From contig CAWHDR010000001.1 of NCBI GenBank assembly GCA_963828165.1, forward strand, positions 1,952,001-2,016,000: DNA of 64,000 nt, given 5' to 3'. A program made the translations under genes and the position numbers. Numbering within the stretch: position 1 is the first letter of the stretch; each line of letters starts with the position of its first letter. Positions 5,642 to 25,149 of the stretch are shown in pieces. The notes under the pieces were generated by a model. The model worked only from the letters and a program-made list of their open reading frames with translations, had not been told where the DNA came from and ran no database searches. This stretch comes from an uncultured Chloroflexia bacterium. Lineage in GTDB: Bacteria; Chloroflexota; Limnocylindria; Limnocylindrales; CSP1-4.

Positions 5642-6934
5642 ATGACCCGCCCATCACCCGCCCCGTCCGTGCACGTCGACACCCTGTCGGTCGCCATGCT
5701 TGGCGCGGGCACCGTCGGTCGCGCCGTCGCGGAGTGGATGCTCGGCCAGCCCGACCGGCTGGTCATGGCTGACGGGGGCGGCGTCACCCTCGTCGCGATC
5801 GCCGTTCGCGACCTCGAACGCGCCCGGGAGGCGGGCATCCGCGGGGACCTGCTGACCGACGCGCCAGCCCACCTCGTCGCCGACCCGGAGACCGACGTCA
5901 TCATCGAGGTGATGGGCGGCGACGAACCGGCGCGGACGCTGATCGTGGCCGCGCTCCGTGCCGGCAAGGCGGTCGTCACCGCGAACAAGCACGTGATCGC
6001 CCACCACGGCCCGGACCTCGAGGCGGCTGCCCGGCTGACCGGGGCGGCCCTTCGGTTCGAGGCCGCCGTGGCCGGAGGCATCCCAGTGCTGGGCACGCTG
6101 GCCGGCGACCTCGCCGCCAACGACATCCAGCGCGTCCGCGGCATCGTGAACGGCACCACGAACTACATCCTGACGGCGATGGCCGACGATGGCCGGCCGT
6201 ACGACGAGGTCCTCGAGGATGCCCAGGAGCTGGGCTACGCGGAGGCTGACCCGACCGGCGACGTCGAGGGCGATGACGCGGTGAACAAGCTCGTGATCCT
6301 CGCTCGGCTCGCGTTCGGTCAGTGGCTGGATCCCGGAACGGTCGGGCGACGGCCGCCGTCGGCGCGCGGCGACGGCAAGCCCGGCATCACCGGCGTCACC
6401 GACCAGGAGCTCGAGGGTGCGGCGGCTCTGGGCCTGACGATCAAGCTGCTTGCCACCGCCACGCGCCGCGACGGGGCTATCGAGGCCTCCGTCATCCCGA
6501 CCGCGGTGCCGGCCGACAGTCCCTTCGGCTGGACCGAGGGCGTCACCAACCGCATCGAGATCGACGCCGAGCCGCTTGGCACGCTCGGCCTGTCGGGACC
6601 GGGCGCCGGTGGGCCCGCGACCAGCAGCGCCATCCTCGGCGATCTCCTGGCGATCGGTCGCGGCCTCGGATCGACCTGGGCCGCTCTGCCCGCGGCGACC
6701 GGACCGGCCACGGCAGCCGCCGACCCCTTCGATGGCCGGCGTCACTGGTTCGCCTTCCTGCCGGCGGTCAAGCCGGGGCCGCTCCCTGACGCCCTCGACG
6801 AGGCCGCCGCAGTCGGGTTCGAGGACGGCACGGCCATCCGCAGCGAGGTCGTGACCCTGGCCCAGGCGAAGGCGGCCTTCGCGGCCATCCTGCCGGACGG
6901 CGTCGACGTCACGCTCTACCCCGTCGATGACTGA
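5642..6934 (+). CDS. hom: homoserine dehydrogenase
   Basis: [41 protein letters not shown] and GPGAG motifs. Confidence 0.95.
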
Positions 6935-8015
6935 CGCGGTGACGGCCGACGCGACCGCCCGGCCGCGGCTGATGGAGCGGTACCGCCGCTTCCTGCCGAT
7001 CACGGATGCCACCCCGGCGCTGACCCTCGGGGAGGGAGCGACGCCGCTCGTCCGCGCCGAGCGTCTCGGGGCGGCGATCGGGGCCCCGAACCTGTACCTC
7101 AAGGTCGAGGGCCAGAACCCGACCGGGTCGTTCAAGGACCGCGGGATGGTCGTGGCGGTGGCCAAGGCCGTGGAGGCTGGGGCGAGGGCCGTCGTGTGCG
7201 CGTCGACCGGCAACACGTCCGCGTCCGCTGCCGCGTACGGCGCCCACGCCGGACTGGAGGTCATCGTGATCCTGCCCAAGGGCCAGATCGCCCTCGGCAA
7301 GCTCGTGGCCGCGCTCATCGCCGGCGCCCGGGTCGTCGCCATCGACGGCAACTTCGACCAGGCGCTCCACATCGTACGGGGACTGGCCGAGCAGGACGAC
7401 CATCCCGTCACCCTGGTCAACTCGGTCAACCCGTTCCGCCTCGAGGGCCAGAAGACCGCGGCTTTCGAGATCTGCGACGACCTCGGGCGCCCCCCTGACA
7501 TCCTGGCGATCCCGGTCGGGAACGCCGGCAACATCAGCGCCTACTGGGCTGGGTTCGGCGAGTACGCCGATGCCGGGCTCACGACATCGACACCCGCGAT
7601 GTGGGGCTTCCAGGCTGCCGGTGCCGCCCCCCTGGTACACGGTCGACGCGTGGAGCGGCCGGAAACGATCGCGACCGCCATCCGGATCGGCGATCCGGCG
7701 TCGTGGGAGAAGGCCGAGGCCGCGCGCGACGAGAGCGGCGGTCGCATCGAGGCGGTGACGGACGACGAGATCCTGGCCGCGTACCGCGATCTGGCTCAGA
7801 CGGAGGGCGTGTTCTGCGAGCCCGCCTCGGCGGCGAGCGTGGCCGGCGTCCGCAAGATGGCGGCGGCCGGCCGCCTGGACCCCGACGCCACGGTCGTCGC
7901 CGTACTGACCGGCCATGGTCTCAAGGACCCAGGAACCGCCGAACGCCAGGCCGCGGGCGTGCTCGAGGCCGCGCCGAGCCTGGGTGCCGTGGCCGTCGCC
8001 CTTGGCTGGAGCTAG
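6927..8015 (+). CDS. thrC: threonine synthase
   Basis: [10 protein letters not shown] (PLP Lys), [15 protein letters not shown] and LTGHGLKDP motifs. Confidence 0.96.
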
Positions 8016-10151: not shown

Positions 10152-10212
10152 CGTGCGCGGCAGCCAACGGCTCGCTCAGGAGCCCGAGGGCGTGACGGTA
10201 GAATGGCGCGCG

Positions 10213-11475
10213 ATGCCCAACCCGCTCGTCGTCCAGAAATTCGGTGGCTCATCGGTCGCCGGTGCGGATCGCATCAAGCGCGTCGCCCGGCGGATCGCAC
10301 GTGAGCGCGCGGCCGGCCACGACCTCGTTGTCGTCGTGTCCGCCATGGGCGACACGACGGATGAGCTCCTCGGGCTCGCCGCAGGCATCACCGATGAACC
10401 CGACCCGCGAGAGCTCGACGTCCTGCTCGCGACCGGCGAGCATCAGAGCGCGACGCTGGTCTCGATGGCCCTGCACGCGATCGGCGTTCCGGCGATCAGC
10501 CTGAGCGGCCCGCAGGCCGGCATCACGACCGACGGCACATACGGACGCGCCCGGATCGCGGGGATCGAGCCACGTCGTGTGCGCGCGGAGATCGAGGGCG
10601 GGAAAGTCGTGATCGTGGCGGGGTTCCAGGGTCAGAGCGCCACGTCCGCGATCGATCAGGAGATCACGACGCTGGGCCGCGGTGGCAGCGACACGACCGC
10701 CGTGGCGCTCGCGGCCGCCCTCCAGGCGGACCGCTGCCAGATCTTCACCGACGTGCGCGGCATCTTCACCGCCGATCCGCGCCTCGTGCCCATGGCCCGG
10801 CAGTTGCCGATCGTCGGCTACGAGGAGATGCTCGAGCTCGCCCACCAGGGCGCCCAGGTCATGCAGGTCCGGGCCGTCGAGCTCGGTTGGGTCAACGACG
10901 TCGTCATCGAAGTCCTGAGCTCCTTCGAGGACGCCCCGGGCACGCTCATCAAGGAGGACCCGCTCGTGGAGCAGCGCAACAAGGTCCGCGGGCTCGCCCA
11001 CGACCGCAACGTGGCCAAGGTCACGGTCGTCGCCGTGCCGGACCGGCCCGGCATCGCCCGCGCGATCTTCGATCCGCTGGCCGCCGCCGGCGTCAACATC
11101 GACCTCATCGTCCAGAACGTCGGCCACGGTGGTGAGACCGACCTCTCGTTCACCGTGCCCCAGCTCGAGCTCGGGAAGGCCAAGAAGACGCTCGATCCGG
11201 TCGTTCGCGAACTCGGGGCACGGGAGCTGACCACGGACGCCTCGGTCGCAAAGGTGTCGATCGTGGGGGCCGGGCTCCACAACGCACCGGGCTACGCCGC
11301 TCGGATGTTCGGCACGCTCGCCGATGCGGGCGTGAACATCGAGATGATCTCGACGTCGGAGGTCCGGATCACCTGCATGATCGCCGAGGATGAGCTCGAG
11401 ACCGCGCTGCGTGCGCTGCACGAGGCGTTCGAGCTGGAGCGACCCGAGCCGATCGAGGTCGCGGCGGCCGGCTGA
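10213..11475 (+). CDS. lysC: aspartate kinase with two C-terminal ACT domains
   Basis: VQKFGGSSV, VVSAMGDTTD, TTLGRGGSD, TDVRGIFTADPR and MISTSE motifs. Confidence 0.96.
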   Translation: MPNPLVVQKFGGSSVAGADRIKRVARRIARERAAGHDLVVVVSAMGDTTDELLGLAAGITDEPDPRELDVLLATGEHQSATLVSMALHAIGVPAISLSGPQAGITTDGTYGRARIAGIEPRRVRAEIEGGKVVIVAGFQGQSATSAIDQEITTLGRGGSDTTAVALAAALQADRCQIFTDVRGIFTADPRLVPMARQLPIVGYEEMLELAHQGAQVMQVRAVELGWVNDVVIEVLSSFEDAPGTLIKEDPLVEQRNKVRGLAHDRNVAKVTVVAVPDRPGIARAIFDPLAAAGVNIDLIVQNVGHGGETDLSFTVPQLELGKAKKTLDPVVRELGARELTTDASVAKVSIVGAGLHNAPGYAARMFGTLADAGVNIEMISTSEVRITCMIAEDELETALRALHEAFELERPEPIEVAAAG

Positions 11476-11486
11476 GCCGCAGCACC

Positions 11487-12305
11487 GTGACCGGGTTCCT
11501 CACCCGCCAGGAACGGTTCACCGTCGTCGGCTCGACGAACGACGTCGTGCGCGACTGGCTGGCCGCTGGGACCCCGGAGGTCTGCCTGGCGGTCGCCGAC
11601 GCGCAGACCGCGGGTCGCGGGCGAGAGGGCCGGACCTGGGTCGCCCCCGCGGGTGGCGCGTTGTTGCTCTCGCTCGGGTTCCGGCCGGCGTGGCTCGCAC
11701 CGGACCGGGTCTGGCGTCTGGCCGCGACGGCGTCACTGGCCATGGCCGAGGCGGCCGAGCACATCGCCGGGCTGCCGGACCGGACGATCCGACTGAAATG
11801 GCCAAACGACCTGGCGGTGGAAGCCACCGACGGCGTGCGCAAGCTGGCCGGAGTGCTCGGTGAGACCGATGGCCTGGGCGGGCCGGACCCGCGCGCGATC
11901 ATCGGCCTCGGGCTGAACACGGATTGGGCGGCAGACGACTTCCCACCCGAGCTTGCCGGGTCGATGACCTCGCTGCGCGAGGTGTCGTCGGGCCGTCCGA
12001 TCGACAACGACGCGCTGCTCGACGGGTTCCTCCGGCGACTGGAAGCGGACTTTTCGGCGCTGCGCCGCGGCCAGTTCGATATCGCCGCCTGGGCCGACCG
12101 GCAGATGACGAGCGGACGCCACGTCGAGCTCGTCGCCCCGGACGGTGCCGTGACCACAGTCCAGGCCCTTGGCGTGGACCCGGACACGGGTGCGCTCGCG
12201 GTCGAGGACGACAGCGTGCCGTCTGGCGCGCGCCACGTCGTCGTCGGGGAGATCCGTCACGTGCGCGTGGCCGCGACGGGCGCTGCGACCGGGGCCGGGG
12301 TGTAA
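11487..12305 (+). CDS. birA: biotin--[acetyl-CoA-carboxylase] ligase (no HTH domain)
   Basis: STND, QTAGRGREGRTW, LKWPNDL, KLAGVL and GLGLN motifs. Confidence 0.92.
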   Translation: MTGFLTRQERFTVVGSTNDVVRDWLAAGTPEVCLAVADAQTAGRGREGRTWVAPAGGALLLSLGFRPAWLAPDRVWRLAATASLAMAEAAEHIAGLPDRTIRLKWPNDLAVEATDGVRKLAGVLGETDGLGGPDPRAIIGLGLNTDWAADDFPPELAGSMTSLREVSSGRPIDNDALLDGFLRRLEADFSALRRGQFDIAAWADRQMTSGRHVELVAPDGAVTTVQALGVDPDTGALAVEDDSVPSGARHVVVGEIRHVRVAATGAATGAGV

Positions 12306-12309
12306 CGGG

Positions 12310-12948
12310 ATGGCACGACCGGCATTGAGGAGACTGGCACGACCGGAGGAGACCGTTCGTCCACGCCTCGCCCGCCTGGATCGCGATCGATCGCTCGTGG
12401 ATGCGGCGCGGAACGATCCGGCACGGTTCGACGCCCTGTATCGGAAGTACCTGGCCCAGGTGTACAACTTCGCGGTCTACGAGCTCGGCGACCACCACGA
12501 CGCCGAGGACGCCACCGAGCGCACCTTCCTGTCCGCCCTCGCCGGCCTGACCGGTTTCGAGGAGCGAGCGCGGCCAGAGGACGGGCCCGAGGCGTCCACG
12601 TTCCGGATCTGGCTGTTCCAGATCGCGCGCAACGTCGTGTCGGAGCGCCGGCGCCGCCGCCGTCGCCGACCGGAGGCCCCCCTCGAGATCGTCGCCGAGG
12701 CTCCCGACCCCGCCAACCTCGAGGAGACCGTCGTGCGGCGCGAGTTGGCGACCGCCGCATGGGGCGCCGTGGACCGTCTCACCGGGGATCGCCGTCGGGC
12801 GGTCGTCCTGCGGTTCGTCCACGAGATGACGACCGCGGAGATCGCGTCGATCCTGGGTCGGTCCGAGGGTGCGGTCCGGGTCCTCATCCACCGCGGCCTG
12901 CGGCGCGTGGCGGGCGATCTCCTGGCGCCGGATCGGGATCCTCGGTGA
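12310..12948 (+). CDS. ECF-type RNA polymerase sigma factor
   Basis: Region 2 (FDALYRKY...DAEDATERTF...FRIWLFQIARN) and region 4 (TAEIASILGRSEGAVRVLIHRG). Start is uncertain. Confidence 0.92.
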   Translation: MARPALRRLARPEETVRPRLARLDRDRSLVDAARNDPARFDALYRKYLAQVYNFAVYELGDHHDAEDATERTFLSALAGLTGFEERARPEDGPEASTFRIWLFQIARNVVSERRRRRRRRPEAPLEIVAEAPDPANLEETVVRRELATAAWGAVDRLTGDRRRAVVLRFVHEMTTAEIASILGRSEGAVRVLIHRGLRRVAGDLLAPDRDPR

Positions 12949-13412
12949 ACGGAGCAGGTACCACGCGCGATGGGGAGAACGAGGCGTTCGTGATCGACCG
13001 CTACCTCGAGTCGCTGCTGAGCCGAACACCGGCGGACGCGACCGACCTTGCGCCGGAGCTCCGTGAGACCGCTGCGGCGCTCGCGGGCGGGCTTCCCCGT
13101 TACCACCCGTCCTTCCGGTTCGAGGAAGCGCTCGCCCAGCGGCTCGCGCACGCCGCCGCGGCCATGGGACCCGCCGCCGAGCCGGTCGCCGAAACGGCTT
13201 CCGGCATCATCCCGTTCCCGCGACCCCTGGTCATGGATGCGGCGCTGGACGGGCGTCCCGGTACCTTCCGGCCAGCCGTCATCGGTGGCGTCCTGACGTC
13301 GGCGGCGATCTCCCTGGCCGGGGCGGCCTACGTCGCCTGGCGACGCAGCCGGCCGGCGGCCGATCCGATGGCCCGCGCGATCCGCGCCGCAGCCCGGCGA
13401 AGGACCGCCTGA
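12945..13412 (+). CDS. putative anti-sigma factor (single C-terminal TM)
   Basis: GTGA overlap with the ECF stop; PSFRFEEAL segment; TM AVIGGVLTSAAISLAGAAYVAW followed by RR. Confidence 0.6.
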   Translation: MNGAGTTRDGENEAFVIDRYLESLLSRTPADATDLAPELRETAAALAGGLPRYHPSFRFEEALAQRLAHAAAAMGPAAEPVAETASGIIPFPRPLVMDAALDGRPGTFRPAVIGGVLTSAAISLAGAAYVAWRRSRPAADPMARAIRAAARRRTA

Positions 13413-15403
13413 TGCCGCTCAAATTGCCGTCGTTCCGTGCCCGCCGGGACGTGTACCCGCCTGACCTGTGGACCAAGTGTCCGGTGTGCTCGACCATGCT
13501 CTTCAACAAGCAGCTCGAGAAGAACCTTCGAGTGTGCTCGACGTGCGGGCACCATTTCCGCCTGGCCGCCGGCGCGCGTCTCGAGCAGCTCCTCGACCCC
13601 GGCTCGTGGTTGGAGCGCGATGCCGGGCTGCAATCAGTCGATGCCCTGGGCTTCGTGGATCAGAAGCCGTACCCCGACCGACTGAGCGCCGCCCAGCTCG
13701 CGACGGGCATGCGAGACGCCGCCGTCTGGGGAACGGGCGCGATCGGGGGCACGCGGCTGGCCGCCTGCGTGATGGACTTCGGGTTCATGGGCGGCTCGAT
13801 GGGCGCGGTCGTCGGCGAGAAGGTGACCCGTGCGGCCGAACACGCCCTCGTGGCCCGCGTGCCGTTGCTGATCGTCAGCGCCTCGGGCGGGGCGCGGATG
13901 CAGGAGGGGACGCTGGCGCTGATGCAGCTGGCCAAGACCCTCGCGGCCCTCGAACGGCTACGCGCGGCGGGTGTGCCATTCGTCTCGATCCTGTCGGACC
14001 CGACGACGGGCGGGGTGTTCGCCTCCTTCGCGGCGGTCGGTGACGTGAACATCGCCGAGCCGAATGCCCTCATCGGGTTCGCCGGCGCCCGGGTCACGGC
14101 CGGCACGATCGCCGCCGAGCTGCCCGAAGGGTTCCAGCGCGCCGAGTTCCTGTACAGCCACGGGTTCATCGACCGGGTGGTGGCACGTCCCGAGATGCGC
14201 GGCGAGCTCACGCACCTGCTACGCCTGTTGCCCTCGCGCGGCATGACCGCCCCGCCGGTGGACCCCGCCGACGACGTCGCCGCGTTCCGGCCCCTGTCCT
14301 TCCTCTCGTCGATCGCGGACCGGGTGGGCGAGCTGGCGAACGGCGACGGTCCCCCGGCGCCCGCGCCTGCACGCGGCGAAGGCGGGAGCCCGGTCCCGAA
14401 CACGCTCCCGATGCCGGCGCCGGACAGCAACCCCACGGACGGGGCCCCGCCGAGCACGGCCACGACCGAGGAGGTCTGGGCGCGCGTCCAGCTGGCGCGC
14501 AACCTGCGCCGTCCGCGCACCCTCGAGTTCATCGCCGCGATGGCCGACGACTTCGTCGAACTCCACGGCGATCGGCTGTTCGGCGACGACGAGGCCATGG
14601 TCGCGGGCCTGGCCAGGATCGGGGGACGACGAGTCGTCGTGATCGGGCAGCAGAAGGGCGACGACACCGACGAGAACATCCGGCGCAACTTCGGCATGCC
14701 GCACCCCGAGGGCTACCGCAAGGCGATGCGGGTCATGGAGCTTGCCGAACGCGTCGGCCTGCCGGTCGTCACCTTCGTCGACGTCCCGGGCGCCCATCCG
14801 GGGCCCGAGTCGGAAGAGCGCGGCATCGCCGAGGCGATCGCCCGCTCGATCGGGCTGATGACCAGGCTGCGGACGCCGATCGTCGCGGTCATCACCGGCG
14901 AGGGTGGGTCGGGTGGAGCGCTGGCCATCGCCGTCGGGGACGTGGTCATCGCGCTCGAGAATGCCGTCTACTCGGTGATCAGCCCCGAAGGCTGCGCGTC
15001 GATCCTGTGGCGGACCTCGGATGAGGCCGCGACAGCCGCCGCCGCGATGCGCATGTCCGCGGCGGATCAGCACGCCCTCGGCGTGGTCGACATCGTCGTC
15101 GCCGAGCCAGGTGAGGGCGCGCACGCCGAGCCTGAGGAGACGGCCAAGCGCCTGCGCAGGATCATCGTCGACCGTCTCGACGCGCTGGCGGAGCTGCCCA
15201 CCGAAGCCCTGCTCGAATCGCGCTACCGGCGCTATCGGGCGTTGGGCGCCTACACTGAGGCCGCCCAACCCGAAGTCCCCGAACGTGTCGATCGTCGCCT
15301 GGCGGATCGATTGCGAGACCTGCTCGACCCGGCCCGTCGGGGCATGGCCCCGGTCACTGACAGCTGGTCCCGCGATGACCCGCCGGCGCGCGAGGAGGTG
15401 TAG
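13412..15403 (+). CDS. accD: fused acetyl-CoA carboxylase carboxyltransferase beta+alpha (AccD-AccA)
   Basis: AccD half: WTKCPVC...CSTC Zn finger, FMGGSMG, SGGARMQEG, PTTGGV. Pro/Ala linker. AccA half: ELHGDR, NFGMPHPEGYRKA, GEGGSGGA, YSVISPEG. Confidence 0.95.
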   Translation: MPLKLPSFRARRDVYPPDLWTKCPVCSTMLFNKQLEKNLRVCSTCGHHFRLAAGARLEQLLDPGSWLERDAGLQSVDALGFVDQKPYPDRLSAAQLATGMRDAAVWGTGAIGGTRLAACVMDFGFMGGSMGAVVGEKVTRAAEHALVARVPLLIVSASGGARMQEGTLALMQLAKTLAALERLRAAGVPFVSILSDPTTGGVFASFAAVGDVNIAEPNALIGFAGARVTAGTIAAELPEGFQRAEFLYSHGFIDRVVARPEMRGELTHLLRLLPSRGMTAPPVDPADDVAAFRPLSFLSSIADRVGELANGDGPPAPAPARGEGGSPVPNTLPMPAPDSNPTDGAPPSTATTEEVWARVQLARNLRRPRTLEFIAAMADDFVELHGDRLFGDDEAMVAGLARIGGRRVVVIGQQKGDDTDENIRRNFGMPHPEGYRKAMRVMELAERVGLPVVTFVDVPGAHPGPESEERGIAEAIARSIGLMTRLRTPIVAVITGEGGSGGALAIAVGDVVIALENAVYSVISPEGCASILWRTSDEAATAAAAMRMSAADQHALGVVDIVVAEPGEGAHAEPEETAKRLRRIIVDRLDALAELPTEALLESRYRRYRALGAYTEAAQPEVPERVDRRLADRLRDLLDPARRGMAPVTDSWSRDDPPAREEV

Positions 15404-15406
15404 CGA

Positions 15407-16033
15407 GTGCCCAGATCGCACCCAGGGGATGCGCGCGAACCCGTTGACGTGACCGTGGATCGCGCGGCGGACCATGCTGCGATCGACCGGCTGACGGACG
15501 AGCTGCTGCCCGCGCTCATCGCCAAGCTCGGCGCGACCGGCCTCGGCGAGCTCGAGGTCCGCGAGGGCGCCTGGCGGGTGCGCCTCCGCCGACCGATGGG
15601 CAATGGCACGGTCACCCCGGGTCCGACGCGGGAGCGCAAGGGCGGGGATCGCGCTGGAGGCGAGCGTTCGGAGGGCGCGCCCGACCGCGCCGGCGAACGT
15701 GCGCCCCGGACGTTGCATCGTCCGCTGGAGGCGAAGACCGCGCGGACCGAATCGCGCGCGGTGGCGACCTCGCCGGCTGTCGGGATCTATCGCTCGCGGG
15801 CCGACCTGTCCGCCGGGACGCGCGTCCGGGCCGGTGATCGACTCGGCGCGGTGGACATGCTCGGGGTCGCACAGGAGGTCGTGGCGCCCGTCGACGGGAT
15901 CCTCGGCACGAGCCTCGTGGAGTCGGGCGATGCCGTCGAGTACGGCCAGGAGATCCTGGTGATCCAGCTCACCACCGGCCATGCGCCCACGAACGGCACT
16001 GGGGCCGACGGCCGCGGACGAGGCACCGCCTGA
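15407..16033 (+). CDS. BCCP-like biotin/lipoyl-attachment-domain protein lacking the biotinyl-Lys (accB*)
   Basis: BCCP-type N-terminus (GLGELEVREG...VRLRR) and C-terminal SPAVG...GDRLGAVDMLG...EVVAPVDG...VESGDAVEYGQ; DMLG replaces EAMK. Confidence 0.85.
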   Translation: MPRSHPGDAREPVDVTVDRAADHAAIDRLTDELLPALIAKLGATGLGELEVREGAWRVRLRRPMGNGTVTPGPTRERKGGDRAGGERSEGAPDRAGERAPRTLHRPLEAKTARTESRAVATSPAVGIYRSRADLSAGTRVRAGDRLGAVDMLGVAQEVVAPVDGILGTSLVESGDAVEYGQEILVIQLTTGHAPTNGTGADGRGRGTA

Positions 16034-17403
16034 TGTTCAGAAAGGTCCTCATCGCGAACCGGGGCGAGATCGCGTTGCGGATCCTGCGTGCCTGCCGCAC
16101 GCTCGGCGTGGAAGCGGTCGTCGCCTACAGCGAAGGCGACCGTGATTCGCTGCCCGTGGGTCTCGCCGACGAGGCGATCTGCATCGGGCCGGCGGACGCG
16201 AAGCGCTCGTACCTGTCCGCTCCGGCCGTCATCTCCGCCGCGCTGGTCACCGGTTGCGACGCGATCCACCCGGGCTACGGGTTCCTGTCCGAGGACGAGG
16301 GGTTCGCCGAGGTGGTGGCAGCCCACGATCTGACGTTCATCGGTCCGCCGGCGGGCGTCCTGGAACGGTTCGCGAGCAAGGCTGGCACGCGCCAGCTGCT
16401 CGGCGGCTTCGGCCTGCCGACGATCCCGGGCTCCGAGGGGATGCTGCGCGACGACATGCACGCACTCGACGAAGCCAGTCGGATCGGCTATCCGGTCCTC
16501 GTGAAGCCATCCGCCGGCGGCGGGGGCAAAGGCATGCGCATGGTGCGCACGCCACGCGAGCTCGAGTCCGTGCTGCGGGTCTGCCGCAGCGAGGCCAAGG
16601 CCGCGTTCGGTGACGACTCCCTGTACCTGGAGAGGTGGCTCGACGAGAACCGGCACGTCGAGGTCCAGGTCGCGGTCGATCGGTACGGACACGGCGTCCA
16701 CCTGGGCGAGCGCGACTGCTCCGTGCAGCGGCGTCACCAGAAGATCCTCGAAGAGGCGCCCACGCCGGCGCTCTCCGATGCCGCCCGCGCCGACCTCGCC
16801 GAGCGTGCGCTCAAGGCCGTGGTGGCAGCTGGCTACGAGAACGTCGGGACGCTCGAGTTCCTCGTCGATCGCGACGGCAACTTCTATTTCATCGAGATCA
16901 ACTGCCGGATCCAGGTGGAGCATCCGGTGACCGAGGTCCTCACCGGCGTCGACCTCGTGGTCACCCAGATGCGGATCGCAGCGGGCGAGCCGCTCGGCAT
17001 CACGCAGGCGGACATCGCGTTCCGCGGGCACGCCATCGAGTTCCGCATCAACGCCGAGGATCCAGATCACGAGTTCCGGCCGAGCGCCGGGATCGTCGAG
17101 CGCTATCACGCTCCGGGCGGCCCGGGCATCCGTGTGGACTCCCATCTGTTCACCGGCTACGAGGTCCCGCCGTACTACGACTCGCTGCTTGGCAAGCTGA
17201 TCGTCTGGGGTCCCGACCGCCCTGCGGCGATCGCCCGCTCTCGGGTGGCCCTCGAGGAGCTCGTCATCGACGGGCTCGTGACGAACGTCGCCATCCATCA
17301 GGCGCTGCTGTCCTCGGAGGCCTTCCTCGAGGGCAAGATGACGACGAACCTGCTCGACCGGGTGGGGAGTGCCGCGTTCCTGGCTGCGGCCGCCCGGGTG
17401 TGA
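16033..17403 (+). CDS. accC: biotin carboxylase
   Basis: KVLIANRGEIA, HPGYGFLSE, GGGGKGM, ERDCSVQRRHQK, RIQVEHPVTE and YDSLLGK motifs. Confidence 0.97.
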   Translation: MFRKVLIANRGEIALRILRACRTLGVEAVVAYSEGDRDSLPVGLADEAICIGPADAKRSYLSAPAVISAALVTGCDAIHPGYGFLSEDEGFAEVVAAHDLTFIGPPAGVLERFASKAGTRQLLGGFGLPTIPGSEGMLRDDMHALDEASRIGYPVLVKPSAGGGGKGMRMVRTPRELESVLRVCRSEAKAAFGDDSLYLERWLDENRHVEVQVAVDRYGHGVHLGERDCSVQRRHQKILEEAPTPALSDAARADLAERALKAVVAAGYENVGTLEFLVDRDGNFYFIEINCRIQVEHPVTEVLTGVDLVVTQMRIAAGEPLGITQADIAFRGHAIEFRINAEDPDHEFRPSAGIVERYHAPGGPGIRVDSHLFTGYEVPPYYDSLLGKLIVWGPDRPAAIARSRVALEELVIDGLVTNVAIHQALLSSEAFLEGKMTTNLLDRVGSAAFLAAAARV

Positions 17404-17515: not shown

Positions 17516-18007
17516 GTGACCCACGCCGCACCCACCGCAACGACGACCGCCGCCCCGACCACGGTCCATACCGTCCGTGAGATCGAGGCCCTGATCCCGC
17601 ATCGCTGGCCGTTCCTGCTCATCGACCGCATCGTCGAGTACGACCAGGAGGCGAAGCGGATCGTGGCGATCAAGGGAGTGACCGCGGGGGAGTGGTTCTT
17701 CGCCGGGCATTTCCCGGGGCTGCCGGTCATGCCCGGCGTCATGCAGGTCGAGGCACTTGCCCAGACGATGGCCGTCTACGTGGCCAAGCAACCCGGATTC
17801 GGCGATCGGATCGGGCTGTTCGCCGGGATCGACGACGCGCGCTTCAAGCGCATCGTCAGCCCGGGCGACGTCCTCCGGCTGGAGATCACGATGGACAAGC
17901 TCGGCTCGCGGTTCGGACGCGGCCGGGGGATCGCCAGCGTCGACGGCGAGGTCGCCTGCGAGGCGACCATCAGCTTCGTGATCCCAGGAGAGGGCGTGCT
18001 CCGGTGA
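17516..18007 (+). CDS. fabZ: 3-hydroxyacyl-ACP dehydratase
   Basis: PHRWPFLLIDR and FFAGHFPGLPVMPGV...EALAQ motifs. Confidence 0.95.
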   Translation: MTHAAPTATTTAAPTTVHTVREIEALIPHRWPFLLIDRIVEYDQEAKRIVAIKGVTAGEWFFAGHFPGLPVMPGVMQVEALAQTMAVYVAKQPGFGDRIGLFAGIDDARFKRIVSPGDVLRLEITMDKLGSRFGRGRGIASVDGEVACEATISFVIPGEGVLR

Positions 18008-18750
18008 GTCGCCTCGCAGCCCTCTCCGACGTGCACGGCAACGCCACGGCGCTCGAGGCCGTGCTCGCGGACGTCGCGCGCGAGAAGCCGGACGCCGTGC
18101 TCGTCGCCGGCGATCTCGTGCTCAACGGACCGGAACCGGCGCTCGTCGTCGACGTCCTGCGCAGCCTGGCCGACGAAGGGGCGCTCGTCGTCGCCGGCAA
18201 CACCGACATCGCCGTCGCCGACTTCGACTATGCAGCAGCGTTCCCGTGGATGACCGACGGTGTGCCGGACGCCATCATCGACGCCGCGGAATGGGCGCAC
18301 GACGCGCTCGGCGCCGAGCGGATCGACTGGTTGCGTCGACTTCCGTCCGAGCGACGCTGGCGCACCGATGACGACACCCTCGTCCTGGTCTGCCACGCAT
18401 CACCCGGCTCGCAGACCGCGGGCTTCGACCAGGGGCTCGAGGCGTCCGTCACGATCGAGCGGGTCGCCCGGACCGACGCTCGCGTCATCGTCTGCGGCCA
18501 CACCCACCTGCCGGAGGTGCGCGATCTCGGCTGGAAGCTGATCGTGAACGACGGATCGGCCGGCTACGTGTTCGACGGCGAACCGACCGCGTCGTGGGCG
18601 CTCATCGACGTCGAGGGCGGTGACGTGCGCGCCGAGATCCGCCGGACCGAGTTCGACGTCCTGTCGGTCGCCAACGCCATCTCGGCGCGCGGGCTCGCTG
18701 GCGACGTATACCGTGCGGCCACCGTCCGAACCGGGAAGCTCGTCCGATGA
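18004..18750 (+). CDS. calcineurin-like metallophosphoesterase
   Basis: SDVHGN, GDLV, GNTD, HASP and GHTH motifs; start and stop overlap fabZ and fabF. Confidence 0.88.
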   Translation: MSRLAALSDVHGNATALEAVLADVAREKPDAVLVAGDLVLNGPEPALVVDVLRSLADEGALVVAGNTDIAVADFDYAAAFPWMTDGVPDAIIDAAEWAHDALGAERIDWLRRLPSERRWRTDDDTLVLVCHASPGSQTAGFDQGLEASVTIERVARTDARVIVCGHTHLPEVRDLGWKLIVNDGSAGYVFDGEPTASWALIDVEGGDVRAEIRRTEFDVLSVANAISARGLAGDVYRAATVRTGKLVR

Positions 18751-19997
18751 CGAGGCGGGTCGTGGTCACCGGGATGGGCATGCTCTCGGCGCTCGGCAAC
18801 GACGTGCCCTCCACGTGGGCGGGCCTGCTCGCCGGGCGACCCGGCATCCGGACGATCGAGGCCTTCGACCCGTCGCGGCTGACCGCACAGATCGCCGGCG
18901 AGGTGCGGGACTTCGACGCGAGCCACGTCCTGGACCGCAAGGACCAGCGCCGGACGGACCGTTACATCCAGTTCGGCCTCGTGGCCGCGCGCGAGGCGAT
19001 GGACCAGGCGGGGCTGCCGGCACGCCTCGAGGACAAGCTAGCGGAGCGGACCGGCGTGATCCTGGGGACCGGGCTCGGCGGCGTCGGGACCCTGAACGAC
19101 GGATTCTCGACGAACGCCCTGCGCGGCCCCGACCGGATCAGCCCATTCCTGATCCCGATGGGGATCCCGAACGTGGGTGCGGGGCAGATCGCCATCACCT
19201 ACGGCATGACCGGACCCAACTTCGCCACGGTGTCCGCATGCGCCACGGGTGGCCACGCCGTCGGTGAGTCGTACGAGACCATCCGTCGCGACGATGCCGA
19301 CATCATGCTCGCTGGCGGCTCGGAGGCGTGCGTCTTCGAGGTCCTCATCGGCGGGTTCGCCGCGATGCGCGCGCTCTCCACGCGGAACGACGACCCCGCC
19401 GCGGCGTCCCGTCCATTCGATACGGGCCGTGATGGCTTCGTGGTCGGCGAAGGCGCCGGTGTCCTCGTGCTGGAGGAGCTCGAGCACGCGCAGGGCCGCG
19501 GCGCGACCCCACTCGCCGAGCTCGTCGGGTACGGAGCGACCGCGGACGCGTCCCACATCACGCTGCCGGCTCCCGGTGGCATGGGAGCGGTTCGCGCAGC
19601 CAGGCGCGCCCTCGAGAAGGCCGGGCTCCAGCCCGAGGACGTCCAGCACGTCAACGCGCATGCCACCTCCACACCCGAGGGCGACAAGGCCGAGCTGCAG
19701 GCCATCAAGACGATCTTCGGTGACCATGCCGCGTCCCTGGCGATCACGGCGAACAAGTCGATGATCGGTCACACGCTCGGTGCCGCGGGTGCCGTGGAGG
19801 CGATCGCCACCGTGCTTGCCCTCCGCGACGGGTGCGTCCCTCCGACGATCAACCTGACCGACCCCGACCCGGAGGCCGAAGGGCTGGACATCGTCACCGG
19901 CGAGGCGAAGCGCCTTGACATGGCGGTCGGTCTGTCCAACTCGTTCGGGTTCGGCGGACAGAACACGGCCCTCGTCTTCCGCCGGTGGGACGCATGA
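18747..19997 (+). CDS. fabF: beta-ketoacyl-ACP synthase II
   Basis: RRVVVTGMG, SACATG (Cys), NAHATST, KSMIGHTLGAAG and NSFGFGG motifs. Confidence 0.96.
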   Translation: MTRRVVVTGMGMLSALGNDVPSTWAGLLAGRPGIRTIEAFDPSRLTAQIAGEVRDFDASHVLDRKDQRRTDRYIQFGLVAAREAMDQAGLPARLEDKLAERTGVILGTGLGGVGTLNDGFSTNALRGPDRISPFLIPMGIPNVGAGQIAITYGMTGPNFATVSACATGGHAVGESYETIRRDDADIMLAGGSEACVFEVLIGGFAAMRALSTRNDDPAAASRPFDTGRDGFVVGEGAGVLVLEELEHAQGRGATPLAELVGYGATADASHITLPAPGGMGAVRAARRALEKAGLQPEDVQHVNAHATSTPEGDKAELQAIKTIFGDHAASLAITANKSMIGHTLGAAGAVEAIATVLALRDGCVPPTINLTDPDPEAEGLDIVTGEAKRLDMAVGLSNSFGFGGQNTALVFRRWDA

Positions 19998-20605
19998 CCG
20001 ACGACGCGACGCAGTCGATGGAGACGCCCGAGGTTCCCCGGGCCCCGGCGTCGCCGGCCCCCGCTGCGTCAGCGGCCACGGCGGGCGACGCCGGAGACCA
20101 AACAGGCGCCGCGCCGCCGCGTGCCGACGACGACCTCGAGCTGCTGGGACTGATCGATCGGCTGGCGGCCCTCCTGGATCGCTCCGACCTGACCGAGCTG
20201 GAGGTCGAGTCGGGTGGGACCGGACTCGTCCTTCGCAAGCCCTCGGCCATCGCGCCCATCGCAAGCACCGCGCTGACGTCGGCACCGACGGCGGCCGGAC
20301 CGGAGACCGCGCCGACTGCGACGGGGGAAGCGACGACCGCCGGAGGCGACGTCGCCCCCGCGGCGAAGCCGTCGATCAAGGCGCCGCTGACCGGGATCTT
20401 CTATGCATCGCCGGCGCCGGGCTCGGCGCCGTACGTCACCGCCGGCGGGGAGGTCGCCGTCGGCCAGATCATCGGCCTGATCGAGGCGATGAAGCTCTTC
20501 AACGAGATCAAGTCGGACCTGGCAGGCCGCGTCGTCCGGGTGGTGCCGGAGAGCGGCACCCTGGTCAAGGCGAAGCAGCCGCTCATCGAGGTGGAACCGC
20601 TGTGA
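19994..20605 (+). CDS. accB: biotin carboxyl carrier protein (canonical)
   Basis: APLTGIFYASPAPG...IEAMKLFNEI, with the biotinyl-Lys motif intact. Confidence 0.93.
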   Translation: MTDDATQSMETPEVPRAPASPAPAASAATAGDAGDQTGAAPPRADDDLELLGLIDRLAALLDRSDLTELEVESGGTGLVLRKPSAIAPIASTALTSAPTAAGPETAPTATGEATTAGGDVAPAAKPSIKAPLTGIFYASPAPGSAPYVTAGGEVAVGQIIGLIEAMKLFNEIKSDLAGRVVRVVPESGTLVKAKQPLIEVEPL

Positions 20606-22696: not shown

Positions 22697-24094
22697 TTGA
22701 CCACACGCTCCCACGCCCGCAGGACCCCGCAGGCGACCCCGTGGCGGCCCGACGAGCCGGCGCGCCGCTCGGCGTCCATCGCCACGTTCCTGTCGTTCCT
22801 GTGGCCCGGCCTGGGCCAGGGCTATGCCGGACGTCCCCGCGCCGGTGCGCTGTTCGCGCTGCCCGTGCTCGTCGTTGCGCTGATCACGTTGGTCCTCGTC
22901 CTTGACGGCGTCGGCCGTCTCGCATCCCTGGTTCTCGAACCGGCGACGGCGTTCGCGCTCATGTTCATCGTCCTCCTGCTCGGCCTGTGGCGGGTGGTGT
23001 CGATGGGTGACGCGATGAACGGGTTGCTGGGCACGGATCCCGCGGTTCGGCGTCGCGCCGTGACGACATTCGCGCTGCTGACGGTCATCGTGATCGTCGC
23101 CCATGCCTGGCTCGGCTACCTCACGTGGTCGGTCTATGACGCCGGTCAGCGGGTGTTCGCCGCGGAGGAGCCCGACGCTCGACCGTCCCTCGCACCGGGC
23201 GTCACGCCCGCCCCGATGGACGACTTCGGCTCGAAGCCGTTCGCCACCCCGGCCACGCAGAGCTCCCGGGTCAACATGCTGCTGATCGGTGTCGACTCAT
23301 CCGAGAACCGCAACACCGCGCTCACCGACACCCTCATGGTCGTGAGCGTCGATCCGGACACCGGGAAGATCGCGATGGTGAGCTTCCCGCGTGACCTTGC
23401 CGATTTCACGCTGTCGAACGGCGAGGTCTACACCTCCAAGATCAACTCCCTGATGACCCATGCCCGAAAGAATCCGGACGAGTTTCCCGACGGGCCGCTG
23501 CACACGCTCGCCACCGAGCTCGGCTACATCCTGGGCGTCCCCATCCAGTACTACACGGCCGTGGATCTCGATGGCTTCCGCAAGGTGATCGACCTCGTCG
23601 GCGGCGTGACGATCGACAACAAGCGGCAGATCAACGATCCCACCTACGACTGGCCCGACGGCCGGAAGGGATTTCAGCTGTCGCCGGGCCGCCATCACCT
23701 CGACGGAGTCACGGCGTTGGCCTTCGTCCGGACGCGCAAGGGGGTCGGGGACACGGATTTCGACCGGTCAAGACGCCAGCAGCAGGTCCTGCTCGCCCTG
23801 CGCAGCCAACTGGCACGGCCCGAGAACATCACCCGGATCCCGGAGATCACCCAGGCGGCGGGCAACGCGCTGCGCACGAACTTCCCGACCGAGCGCGTGG
23901 CCGAGTTCATCGGGCTGGCGGAGACCCTCGCCGACAGCGATGTGAGTGGGGTCGTGCTCGGGCCGCCGTACGCACTCAAGGCGACCGGTCCCGGCGTGTT
24001 CGACTACCGATTGCGCTTCGACGAGGAGCGCCTGGCGCGCAAGTCCGTGGAGCTCTTCGGCGATGACAGCCGCTACGCGGCGAGCGCGCCCTAG
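22697..24094 (+). CDS. LCP (LytR-CpsA-Psr) family glycopolymer transferase with N-terminal TMs
   Basis: NMLLIGVD, TDTLMVVS, SFPRDL, KINS, ALAFVRTR and DFDRSRRQQ motifs. The TTG start is approximate. Confidence 0.9.
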   Translation: MTTRSHARRTPQATPWRPDEPARRSASIATFLSFLWPGLGQGYAGRPRAGALFALPVLVVALITLVLVLDGVGRLASLVLEPATAFALMFIVLLLGLWRVVSMGDAMNGLLGTDPAVRRRAVTTFALLTVIVIVAHAWLGYLTWSVYDAGQRVFAAEEPDARPSLAPGVTPAPMDDFGSKPFATPATQSSRVNMLLIGVDSSENRNTALTDTLMVVSVDPDTGKIAMVSFPRDLADFTLSNGEVYTSKINSLMTHARKNPDEFPDGPLHTLATELGYILGVPIQYYTAVDLDGFRKVIDLVGGVTIDNKRQINDPTYDWPDGRKGFQLSPGRHHLDGVTALAFVRTRKGVGDTDFDRSRRQQQVLLALRSQLARPENITRIPEITQAAGNALRTNFPTERVAEFIGLAETLADSDVSGVVLGPPYALKATGPGVFDYRLRFDEERLARKSVELFGDDSRYAASAP

Positions 24095-25149
24095 CAGGTC
24101 CGGATCGAGGACTTCGGGGGATCCGGGCGATTCGGGCACTCGCAGAGCCCGGCCAGCGCCATGCCCAGCAGCGCGTGCGCATCGAAGCGCGGGACCCGTG
24201 GCGAGATCTTGAGGGTCTCGCACACCGCATTCGACCAGCGCCTGATGTCGCCACCCCAGCGCGCCGAGAAGGCGAGCGCGGCGCCCGTCCCGGACGTCTG
24301 CCACTGCGATCCCTTGCGCGCCTCCATCGACGGCGTCAGCACCATGTCGGTCGGATAGACGCCGCCGTACGTGTCCAGCGAATCGATGGCCTCCTCACGC
24401 GTCCAGGCGACCTCGAAGCCGGCGTCCCGCGCCCGCTCCGCACCCCACAGGATGTAGATGTGGTGGGCGAGGTCATTGACGATCGGCTGGCGCGCCGAGT
24501 ACGGCCAGCGCAGGCTCGCGTCATGCTGGGACGCGAGACGGACCAGGGATCCTTCGACTCGCTCGCGGAGGAACGCCGCGTCGGCCTCCGAGAGGGCGTC
24601 TCCGTGCTCGGTGAGGAACCGCGCAGCCGCCCCGGCAAGCATCCCGTTCACATTCGGCGTATCGATCGCGTCCTGGGGGGCGAGCGAGTACCAGAAGTAC
24701 CCGTCCGACCACGCCTCGCGAGCCCAGCGCATGAGGATCCGGCCGATCCGATCGGCCTCATCGGCATCGATGCCGGCCTCCAGCAGGCCGTCGATCGCGA
24801 TCGCGGTCGTGACGGCGAACGGCGTTCCAGCCTGGGTCATCGAGCCGTCGCTGAATGGATCCCACGTCCAATCCATCCCCCAGCCCGCGGGACGCTCGTC
24901 GTCCCGTAGCCAGGTGCGGGCGCGGTCCGCGGTCTCGGCGTCGCCGGCCGCAACGGCAGACTCCAGCACGAGCCCATAGGTCGTTGCGTATTCGAACTCG
25001 CCCGGACCGAAGATCGGGTCCTCGCTCGCCACCTGAACGACCGGCAACAGCTTGTCGTACGAATCAAGATCGCCGACGCGCGCGGCGACCTCGATCCCGA
25101 GCACCACGACGAGGAGCGGCGCGAGGATGACCGAGATGCGACGCATCAT
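24091..25149 (-). CDS. exported hypothetical protein, probable alpha/alpha-toroid carbohydrate-active fold
   Basis: Signal-like N-terminus; Trp-rich helical segments (GWGMDWTW, YFWYS...PNVN, WPYS...DLAHH); lies in the glycan locus. Confidence 0.6.
   Translation of the reverse strand: MMRRISVILAPLLVVVLGIEVAARVGDLDSYDKLLPVVQVASEDPIFGPGEFEYATTYGLVLESAVAAGDAETADRARTWLRDDERPAGWGMDWTWDPFSDGSMTQAGTPFAVTTAIAIDGLLEAGIDADEADRIGRILMRWAREAWSDGYFWYSLAPQDAIDTPNVNGMLAGAAARFLTEHGDALSEADAAFLRERVEGSLVRLASQHDASLRWPYSARQPIVNDLAHHIYILWGAERARDAGFEVAWTREEAIDSLDTYGGVYPTDMVLTPSMEARKGSQWQTSGTGAALAFSARWGGDIRRWSNAVCETLKISPRVPRFDAHALLGMALAGLCECPNRPDPPKSSIRTC

Follow-up and report, generated by a model that had tools for sequence, protein, structure and literature searches.

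The window analyzed here is a 64,000-nucleotide (nt) stretch of contig CAWHDR010000001.1 (assembly GCA_963828165.1, positions 1,952,001 to 2,016,000 of the forward strand) from an uncultured soil Chloroflexota bacterium of the class Limnocylindria. It has a G+C content of ~70% and carries a fatty-acid initiation cluster on its + strand, including genes for acetyl-CoA carboxylase (ACCase). Two biotin carboxyl carrier protein (BCCP)-type proteins are encoded in this cluster: a Lys-bearing AccB between fabF and fabH, and a 208-residue Lys-less paralog, here called BCCPx, between a fused accD-accA gene (accDA) and the biotin carboxylase (BC) gene accC. The first-pass annotation of the window had singled out this pair, noted that the upstream member is coupled to accC, and suggested that it is a non-biotinylated ACCase subunit or regulator analogous to the plant BADC proteins. 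We recovered the coupling as described, with the TGA stop of BCCPx overlapping the ATG of accC in the sequence TGATG at 16031-16035. At the other end, the BCCPx start is a GTG four bases past the accDA stop, preceded by a Shine-Dalgarno-like GGAGG, and GAGGAGGT stands upstream of the BCCPx start in 6/6 same-genus loci. A start coupled to accDA and a stop overlapping accC fit equimolar synthesis with the catalytic subunits, as for a stoichiometric subunit. The G+C content at third codon positions (GC3) of the BCCPx frame was 0.85 compared with 0.80–0.95 in neighboring genes, marking it as a coding frame typical of this genome.

The match of BCCPx to the BCCP models was weak, yet it spanned the whole model length. 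BCCPx scored 20.8 bits against Pfam Biotin_lipoyl (cut-off 22.1) and 31.3 bits against the BCCP model TIGR00531 (cut-off 115.2; residues 37-187 on model positions 9-155), compared with 46.8 and 107.9 bits, respectively, for the AccB of the window. The two paralogs shared 25% identity over 157 columns by BLASTP (E 3e-4), with D-M-L-G of BCCPx placed on E-A-M-K of AccB. The best solved relative of a 16-sequence family profile was 4hr7_B, the E. coli BCCP (E 7.8e-17), which matched across the N-terminal motif as well as the biotinyl domain, and the family Gly aligned with the Lys of A-M-K while the gaps fell in the thumb. Both alignments bear out the replacement of the carrier Lys read in the first-pass annotation. 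Its other sequence observations held as well: the translation contains only K39, K78, and K109, all ahead of the C-terminal domain, leaving residues 110-208 Lys-free; the thumb segment, counted from the xVG motif to the next conserved Gly, has 9 residues in BCCPx and 15 in the Lys-bearing copy, i.e., six fewer; and the N-terminal ELEV segment is kept, the profile aligning there with the N-terminus of E. coli BCCP. A lipoyl-Lys is also absent, as the hairpin tip holds a Gly and the best matches were BCCPs, not lipoyl domains. AccB contains E-A-M-K and a full thumb but reads LVKAKQ where BCCPx reads AVEYGQ. In an alignment of 61 family members reaching down to 27–30% identity, 13 positions were invariant, including L152 and G153, and 14 were near-invariant. 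Judged by its sequence, BCCPx is a non-biotinylatable BCCP paralog.

The Lys loss was fixed across the family. Among the 120 closest homologs (65–100% identical), 119 had [M/I/L]-L-G at the site and the remaining one was an unrelated chimera. The last 80 residues were Lys-free in 112/120, and the domain holds no other conserved Lys. All 27 orthologs, drawn from two families, had x-L-G there. A search with the family profile through 1.84 billion protein cluster representatives (50% identity) yielded 150 proteins at E ≤ 1e-30, 1055 at ≤ 1e-10, and 8796 at ≤ 1e-3. At least 146 of the best 150 read x-L-G (DVLG, DMLG, DLLG, EVLG, DCLG, NVLG, etc.), and none of these 150 had a Lys at the site (three were truncated or frame-shifted and one was unresolved). 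M-K was not retained in any of the 120 closest homologs, the 27 orthologs, the third-family loci, or the best 150 representatives. The frame was intact in every same-genus, second-family, and third-family locus read. Genomes of relatives contained a BCCPx match in 39/41 cases, including all 15 of high completeness, and the two unmatched genomes are 69% and 59% complete. By family within the class, BCCPx was present in 15/15 genomes of the window's family, 2/2 of the second, and 15/15 of the third, a tally that includes one unpublished genome (G184), which enters here only. Genomes of the second family of the order (G025-G040) measure just 1.0–1.4 Mb at 84–93% completeness, yet have kept both BCCPx and AccB.

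Record titles of the BCCPx family name uncultured Chloroflexota and 'Candidatus Limnocylindrales/Limnocylindria'. The best 80 of 418 loci in a genome-contig scan all came from Chloroflexota metagenome-assembled genomes (MAGs), which does not imply absence elsewhere, and protein atlas matches were Chloroflexota 'hypothetical protein' clusters only, which likewise says nothing on absence elsewhere. A homolog search with the AccB C-domain returned near-identical carriers only, again with no implication of absence elsewhere. Pfam BSH_RND tags on BCCPx homologs were taken as fold-level cross-matches and not as a sign of membrane-fusion function.

BCCPx is under purifying selection. Ratios of nonsynonymous to synonymous substitution rates (dN/dS) were calculated by the Nei-Gojobori method and combined across 27 independent pairs whose AccC dS was < 0.6; the outlier pair L138/L155 (dN 2.1), presumed to be a misaligned fragment, was retained in the pooled figures. 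The pooled value for whole BCCPx was 0.38, made up of 0.26 in the N-terminal motif, 0.57 in the linker, and 0.31 in the C-domain, compared with 0.17 for AccC and 0.22 for AccDA. BCCPx is constrained, though less than the catalytic subunits. Local error or recent decay is ruled out by the fixed Lys loss in orthologs and by dN/dS. Of the outcomes speaking against the first-pass reading of a non-biotinylated, BADC-like ACCase subunit, we looked for M-K orthologs, relaxed selection, and an alternative Lys; all three were absent, and the reading is supported.

An AlphaFold2 model of BCCPx from the 61-sequence alignment (mean predicted local distance difference test score, pLDDT, 77.8) divided the protein into three parts: an alpha/beta/beta motif at the N-terminus, a linker predicted to be disordered, and a biotinyl-type beta-sandwich. 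The N-terminal motif aligns to 4hr7_B from residue 29, ranks second to the C-domain in conservation, and has ten positions invariant in 16 sequences (L33, P35, L37, L41, G45, L46, E48, E50, R59, and R61). The best Foldseek match of the sandwich was 1bdo, the E. coli biotinyl domain (E 4.4e-6, template modeling score normalized to the target 0.81, root-mean-square deviation 1.7 Å over 75 columns). When AccC was modeled in complex with BCCPx residues 14-190, the interface score (ipSAE) was 0.78 (runs of 0.77, 0.80, and 0.78), and the best of three controls scored 0.00. The ipSAE mark is reached by 58/80 solved complexes and 2/110 mismatched pairs, a calibration that is only rough with the alignments used here. 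The runs shared at least 31% of contacts and partner pLDDT was at least 62. The modeled contacts joined AccC residues 34, 49-53, 59, 64-73, and 98 with BCCPx residues 124-127 (A-V-G-I), 151-154 (M-L-G-V), and 176-181 (A-V-E-Y-G-Q), with the VEYGQ patch meeting AccC residues 34, 49-53, 59, and 65-69. On the BCCPx side these contacts take in most of the invariant and near-invariant C-domain positions in the 61 sequences. In silico, the AccC complex passed relative to its controls, although resemblance to the already solved E. coli complex may account for this. As a prediction, binding of AccC by BCCPx is supported by the model, and we judge the location of the predicted contact to be informative. 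In the E. coli structure 4HR7, BCCP binds BC at helix 64-73 according to the account of it in a preprint on plant BC (10.64898/2025.12.30.697075). This site is described in sections of PMC11160672 as non-catalytic in the E. coli ACCase filament and as shared by BCCP with the AccD N-terminus, and the same sections propose that the BCCP alpha/beta/beta N-termini form a barrel that tethers the carriers.

Gene order around BCCPx was conserved. We found accDA-BCCPx-accC in 16/19 same-genus loci, where the other three end at contig edges, in 8/8 second-family loci, where a Lys-bearing accB again lies ~4 kb downstream, and in 77/81 further loci, the remaining four being cut by contig ends. The third family (L047-L058, e.g. 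L053:1956-2921) contained fabD (Acyl_transf_1, 5.5e-42) between BCCPx and accC, with the fabD start overlapping the BCCPx stop. In metatranscriptomes (four runs), a 764-nt contig of X15 spanned 15270-16031 at ~90% identity and a 512-nt contig of X16, from the same sample, spanned 15068-15567. These contigs are a weak hint that BCCPx is co-transcribed with accDA, given that they come from relatives and that the libraries may contain DNA.

Within the phylum, 17 families contained Lys-less copies similar to BCCPx. Among 20 genomes from Chloroflexota classes other than that of the window, the best profile match was Lys-less in 15 and canonical in 5, and the residue at the Lys site in those 15 was G (7), N (4), A (2), M (1), or R (1). 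We then classed carriers from every BCCP-like domain retrieved from 79 Chloroflexota genomes. In 54 genomes of 16 families, which as kin genomes with one or few ancient events possible are not independent replicates, a Lys-less copy with xVG ... V-E-[YF]-G-Q was paired with a Lys copy reading P-L-T-G ... L-V-x-x-G-x. Only a Lys-bearing copy with E. coli-like patches was present in 19 genomes of eight families, two genomes had only a Lys-less copy retrieved (a partner was not looked for), and three had only short thumb-less biotin proteins. No genome among the 79 combined a Lys-less copy with solely a patch-bearing Lys carrier, and nine apparent exceptions to the pairing vanished once weaker matches were retrieved. 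When nine of the 19 single-carrier genomes and the related genome G316 were searched more deeply (TIGR00531 E ≤ 1e-3 or PF00364 E ≤ 0.01), no Lys-less copy turned up. All three carrier types, namely a patch-bearing Lys-less copy, a patch-bearing Lys copy, and a patch-less Lys copy, occurred in one genome of one family (G144, f39; L285, L219/L302, and L253), which may represent an intermediate state or a mixed bin (contamination ~5%).

The V-E-[YF] patch was kept in 48/48 distinct Lys-less copies and a Leu preceded the lost Lys in 44/48. Lys-bearing AccBs paired with a Lys-less copy (55 genomes) read P-L-T-G ... L-V-x-x-G-x, as opposed to the E. coli-like P-M-V-G-T ... V-E-[YF], and most fell under the TIGR00531 cut-off (e.g. 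107.9, 111.9, and 98.2 vs 115.2 bits). Going by these motifs, the carrier's features are partitioned between the paralogs phylum-wide, with the putative docking surface long retained in the Lys-less copy and lost from the Lys copy. This partition is new here. Lys-less copies of other classes shared with BCCPx the architecture, the xVG and VEYGQ patches, and the pairing with a patch-less Lys-bearing AccB. They differed in that 28/48 keep a 15-residue thumb, the Lys site is occupied by various residues (G, Q, N, R, A, D, H, or M), and the genes are not adjacent to accC or accDA. We found no paper on these other-class copies within the literature covered.

Recent duplication of the neighboring AccB was ruled out as the origin of BCCPx: in a 57-row tree, all 27 Limnocylindria BCCPx formed a clade (Shimodaira-Hasegawa-like approximate likelihood ratio test, SH-aLRT, 97) apart from the five Limnocylindria AccBs (97). 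In that tree, the 15 Lys-bearing rows lay on one side of a branch (SH-aLRT 94), and L074, a Lys-less copy from another class, was the sister of the window's clade (SH-aLRT 89). With the trait columns removed, a tree of 129 rows and 64 columns did not resolve descent from a patch-bearing carrier. Grouping of the Lys-less with the patch-bearing Lys copies was not rejected by the approximately unbiased test (p-AU 0.60), a result uninformative either way. One hint toward a patch-bearing origin came from an efp-linked Lys-less query, whose distant matches were E-A-M-K carriers with VEYGQ.

Table 1 Features of the window discussed in the text, in order of position.
Feature	Position	Strand	Details
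lysC	10153-11475	+	
birA-type biotin-protein ligase	11487-12305	+	TIGR00121 117.5 bits, cut-off 83.1; 1.1 kb upstream of acc operon
ECF sigma factor and possible anti-sigma	12169-13412	+	
accD-accA fusion (accDA)	13412-15403	+	carboxyltransferase beta and alpha, N-terminal Zn ribbon
Shine-Dalgarno-like GGAGG	15392-15396	+	inside last accDA codons, ~10 nt upstream of BCCPx GTG
BCCPx, Lys-less BCCP paralog	15407-16033	+	208 residues; between accDA and accC
BCCPx N-terminal alpha/beta/beta motif	15449-15589	+	residues 15-61; helix 15-44, strands 48-53 and 56-61; pLDDT 77-93
BCCPx disordered Arg/Gly/Pro-rich linker	15590-15751	+	residues 62-115, about; pLDDT 45-63; length varies in alignments
BCCPx Lys-free biotinyl-type beta-sandwich	15752-15970	+	residues 116-188, about; pLDDT 94-98
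BCCPx hairpin D150-M-L-G153	15854-15865	+	replaces E-A-M-K; codons gac atg ctc ggg; Gly at biotinyl-Lys position
BCCPx V177-E-Y-G-Q181 patch	15935-15949	+	predicted AccC contact; V177, E178, G180 invariant and Y179, Q181 at least 90% (61 sequences)
accC (biotin carboxylase)	16033-17403	+	NF006367 646 bits, TIGR00514 622 bits
fabZ	17516-18007	+	PF07977 FabA-like, 4.2e-30
fabF	18747-19997	+	PF00109 and PF02801
accB, Lys-bearing	19985-20605	+	between fabF and fabH; TIGR00531 107.9 bits on residues 57-204
fabH, fabG			downstream of accB

The remaining genes of the cluster are listed in Table 1. AccDA matched TIGR00515 (accD, 348.8 bits) over residues 11-273 and NF004344/TIGR00513 (accA) over residues 354-617, with PF17848 (Zn_ribbon_ACC) at residues 20-45. 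The two halves are linked by a ~70-residue Pro/Ala/Gly-rich joint (residues ~280-350, window 14250-14470) that lies outside both family models. The birA-type ligase lacks an N-terminal repressor domain, and only the extracytoplasmic function (ECF) sigma factor gene and a family-less open reading frame (ORF) of 217 residues separate it from the acc operon. A gene for a calcineurin-like metallophosphoesterase (17692-18750) sits inside the fatty-acid cluster between fabZ and fabF. Two long ORFs on the opposite strand, 5654-7534 (626 residues) and 24091-25149 (352 residues), had coding-like GC3 and no Pfam family at E ≤ 1e-5.

The closest described counterpart is BADC (biotin attachment domain-containing protein) of plants and algae, a subunit without catalytic function in the heteromeric ACCase of plastids. 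In the passages devoted to it, BADC is a BCCP paralog, 25–30% identical to BCCP, that has no biotinylation motif and is not biotinylated (PMC11926652), that binds both BC and BCCP (PMC10440990), and that acts as a BC-binding, non-carboxylatable competitor (PMC10440990 and, for the Chlamydomonas ACCase, PMC13585458). Whether it is an inhibitor or a 'glue' is disputed across parts of four papers (PMC11926652, PMC10440990, PMC13585458, PMC12706156), two of which cite Shivaiah et al. 2020 for the assembly ('glue') role (PMC11926652, PMC10440990). BCCPx is likewise a BCCP homolog without the biotinylation motif that occurs alongside a true BCCP, with 25% identity to its AccB, and the complex model places it on BC. 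BADC is nuclear-encoded and plastid-targeted, whereas the BCCPx gene belongs to a bacterial operon of Chloroflexota MAGs, flanked by accDA and accC. The BCCPx thumb is shortened. Set against the published descriptions of BADC, BCCPx would appear to work like BADC on every point examined, be it by descent or by convergence.

Compared with E. coli AccB (4HR7), BCCPx shares the xMVG ... VE[FY] patches and the alpha/beta/beta N-terminus, and its predicted contact at AccC helix 64-73 coincides with the reported E. coli BCCP site. In E. coli a single BCCP both parks and carries biotin, whereas in the window BCCPx has no Lys and a shortened thumb, and the second, Lys-bearing paralog has no VE[FY] patch. 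Actinobacterial acyl-CoA carboxylases have small non-catalytic epsilon subunits that help to assemble and activate the enzyme (Gago et al., as cited in a passage of PMC11926652). BCCPx as proposed here would similarly be a small non-catalytic protein aiding a bacterial biotin carboxylase complex. Epsilon subunits are not known to be BCCP homologs. Within the literature covered we found no report of a bacterial Lys-less BCCP.

We conclude that the Lys-less paralog is genuine and conserved. It represents the BADC idea in a bacterial counterpart and belongs to a division of the carrier into two types across the phylum. As to function, we give about even credence to BCCPx being a biotin-free anchor or assembly subunit of ACCase. 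Its C-terminal domain would occupy AccC helix 64-73, the non-catalytic site at which BCCP docks on biotin carboxylase, through a surface made of the AVG, LG-hairpin, and VEYGQ patches. The N-terminal alpha/beta/beta motif would co-assemble with the matching motif of biotinylated AccB, holding AccB in the complex. The biotin-free twin would then anchor and assemble, and the Lys-bearing AccB, its VEYGQ patch lost, would serve as the swinging arm. Binding of AccC is predicted by the complex model, while the hetero-assembly with AccB and the positive (assembly) sign are our proposals.

Several points weigh against this anchor reading. The complex model may owe its pass to memory of the solved 4HR7 instead of this particular pair, and the loss of the docking surface from AccB is read from sequence alone. 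Trees of such short domains cannot tell which BCCP type the Lys-less copies descend from, and the partition of motifs could stem from a single ancient event or a few. The evolutionary rate of BCCPx is also about double that of AccC: in comparisons between families, identity is 30–35% for BCCPx, 45–50% for AccB, 64% for AccC, and 56% for AccDA. The AccB C-domain is far more conserved, its best 120 matches being 93–100% identical compared with 65–100% for BCCPx. Finally, in other Chloroflexota classes the Lys-less gene stands not beside acc genes but in a pepP-efp-BCCP*-xseA cluster. None of ten such genes (L159-L168, e.g. L162:3825-7476 and L168:4260-7712) had accC or accDA nearby; pepP (M24 peptidase, aminopeptidase P) was present in eight, efp was identified in five, and xseA was adjacent in seven. 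Genomes with the pepP-efp copy contained a Lys-bearing accB elsewhere, beside accC in 2/5 examined. The pepP-efp-BCCP* position resembles the common bacterial efp-accB neighborhood with accC gone.

The sign of the effect could also be negative, with BCCPx binding biotin carboxylase, competing with holo-AccB, and damping malonyl-CoA synthesis. Such an inhibitor model, originally put forward for plant BADC, draws on the same conserved patches and complex model as the anchor reading. The description of BADC as a BC-binding competitor (passages of PMC10440990 and PMC13585458) favors it, and a biotin-free docker would occupy BC unproductively if the site matters for turnover. However, translational coupling between two catalytic genes suggests constitutive equimolar output as opposed to conditional control, and the predicted site corresponds to a non-catalytic parking site and not the active site in the sections of PMC11160672 noted above. 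The Lys-bearing AccB does not have the patch, so the two proteins may not compete for one surface, and the sign is disputed even for plant BADC. We consider a negative regulator unlikely.

A role outside the AccC/AccDA enzyme, either as partner of a BC-BCCP fusion carboxylase or through action of the N-terminal segment on operon expression, appears more improbable still. The genome has three biotin carboxylase genes, of which accC alone is free-standing and the other two are fused to BCCP domains and could offer such a partner. The linkage of other-class Lys-less genes to pepP, efp, and xseA instead of acc genes points the same way, and residues 1-68 of E. coli AccB repress accBC expression (in a part of PMC11160672). 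In the window's class, though, 77/81 loci have the gene fixed between accDA and accC, the surface with the strongest conservation belongs to the C-domain and meets AccC in the model, and the pepP-efp position may be inherited and not functional. Least credible of all is a decaying, functionless duplicate kept by its position in an essential operon: BCCPx does evolve faster than its neighbors and scores under the family cut-offs, but this reading is contradicted by selection and conservation, with the frame intact in all loci read, dN/dS of 0.26–0.31 in the folded parts, 13 invariant and 14 near-invariant positions in 61 sequences, and retention across at least the whole class as well as in similar copies throughout the 17 families.

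Returning to the anchor reading, its extension to the phylum is a tentative one, to which we give somewhat less than even credence: the parking and biotin-swinging jobs of the carrier may be split between two paralogs across most Chloroflexota and possibly in further phyla. One would be a biotin-free anchor with the E. coli-type docking patch and the other a biotinylated arm that has lost it. The complementary loss, with one copy lacking the Lys and its partner the docking patch, makes this a concrete and testable model of division of labor. Lys-less copies are currently annotated as 'biotin carboxyl carrier protein' or 'hypothetical protein', and a pathway reconstruction treating them as carriers would be in error. 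A bacterial counterpart in an acc operon would also be a simpler system in which to settle the role of such a subunit, consisting of four to five soluble proteins with no transit peptides or paralog families. BADC is treated as a plant and algal specialty in the plant literature, and in one passage is called 'unique to the plant htACCase' (PMC11926652). If the division of labor proposed here is true, a five-protein ACCase with a 'dummy' carrier would be an old invention of bacteria and not a plant novelty, and plant BADC would either descend from it or repeat it by convergence.

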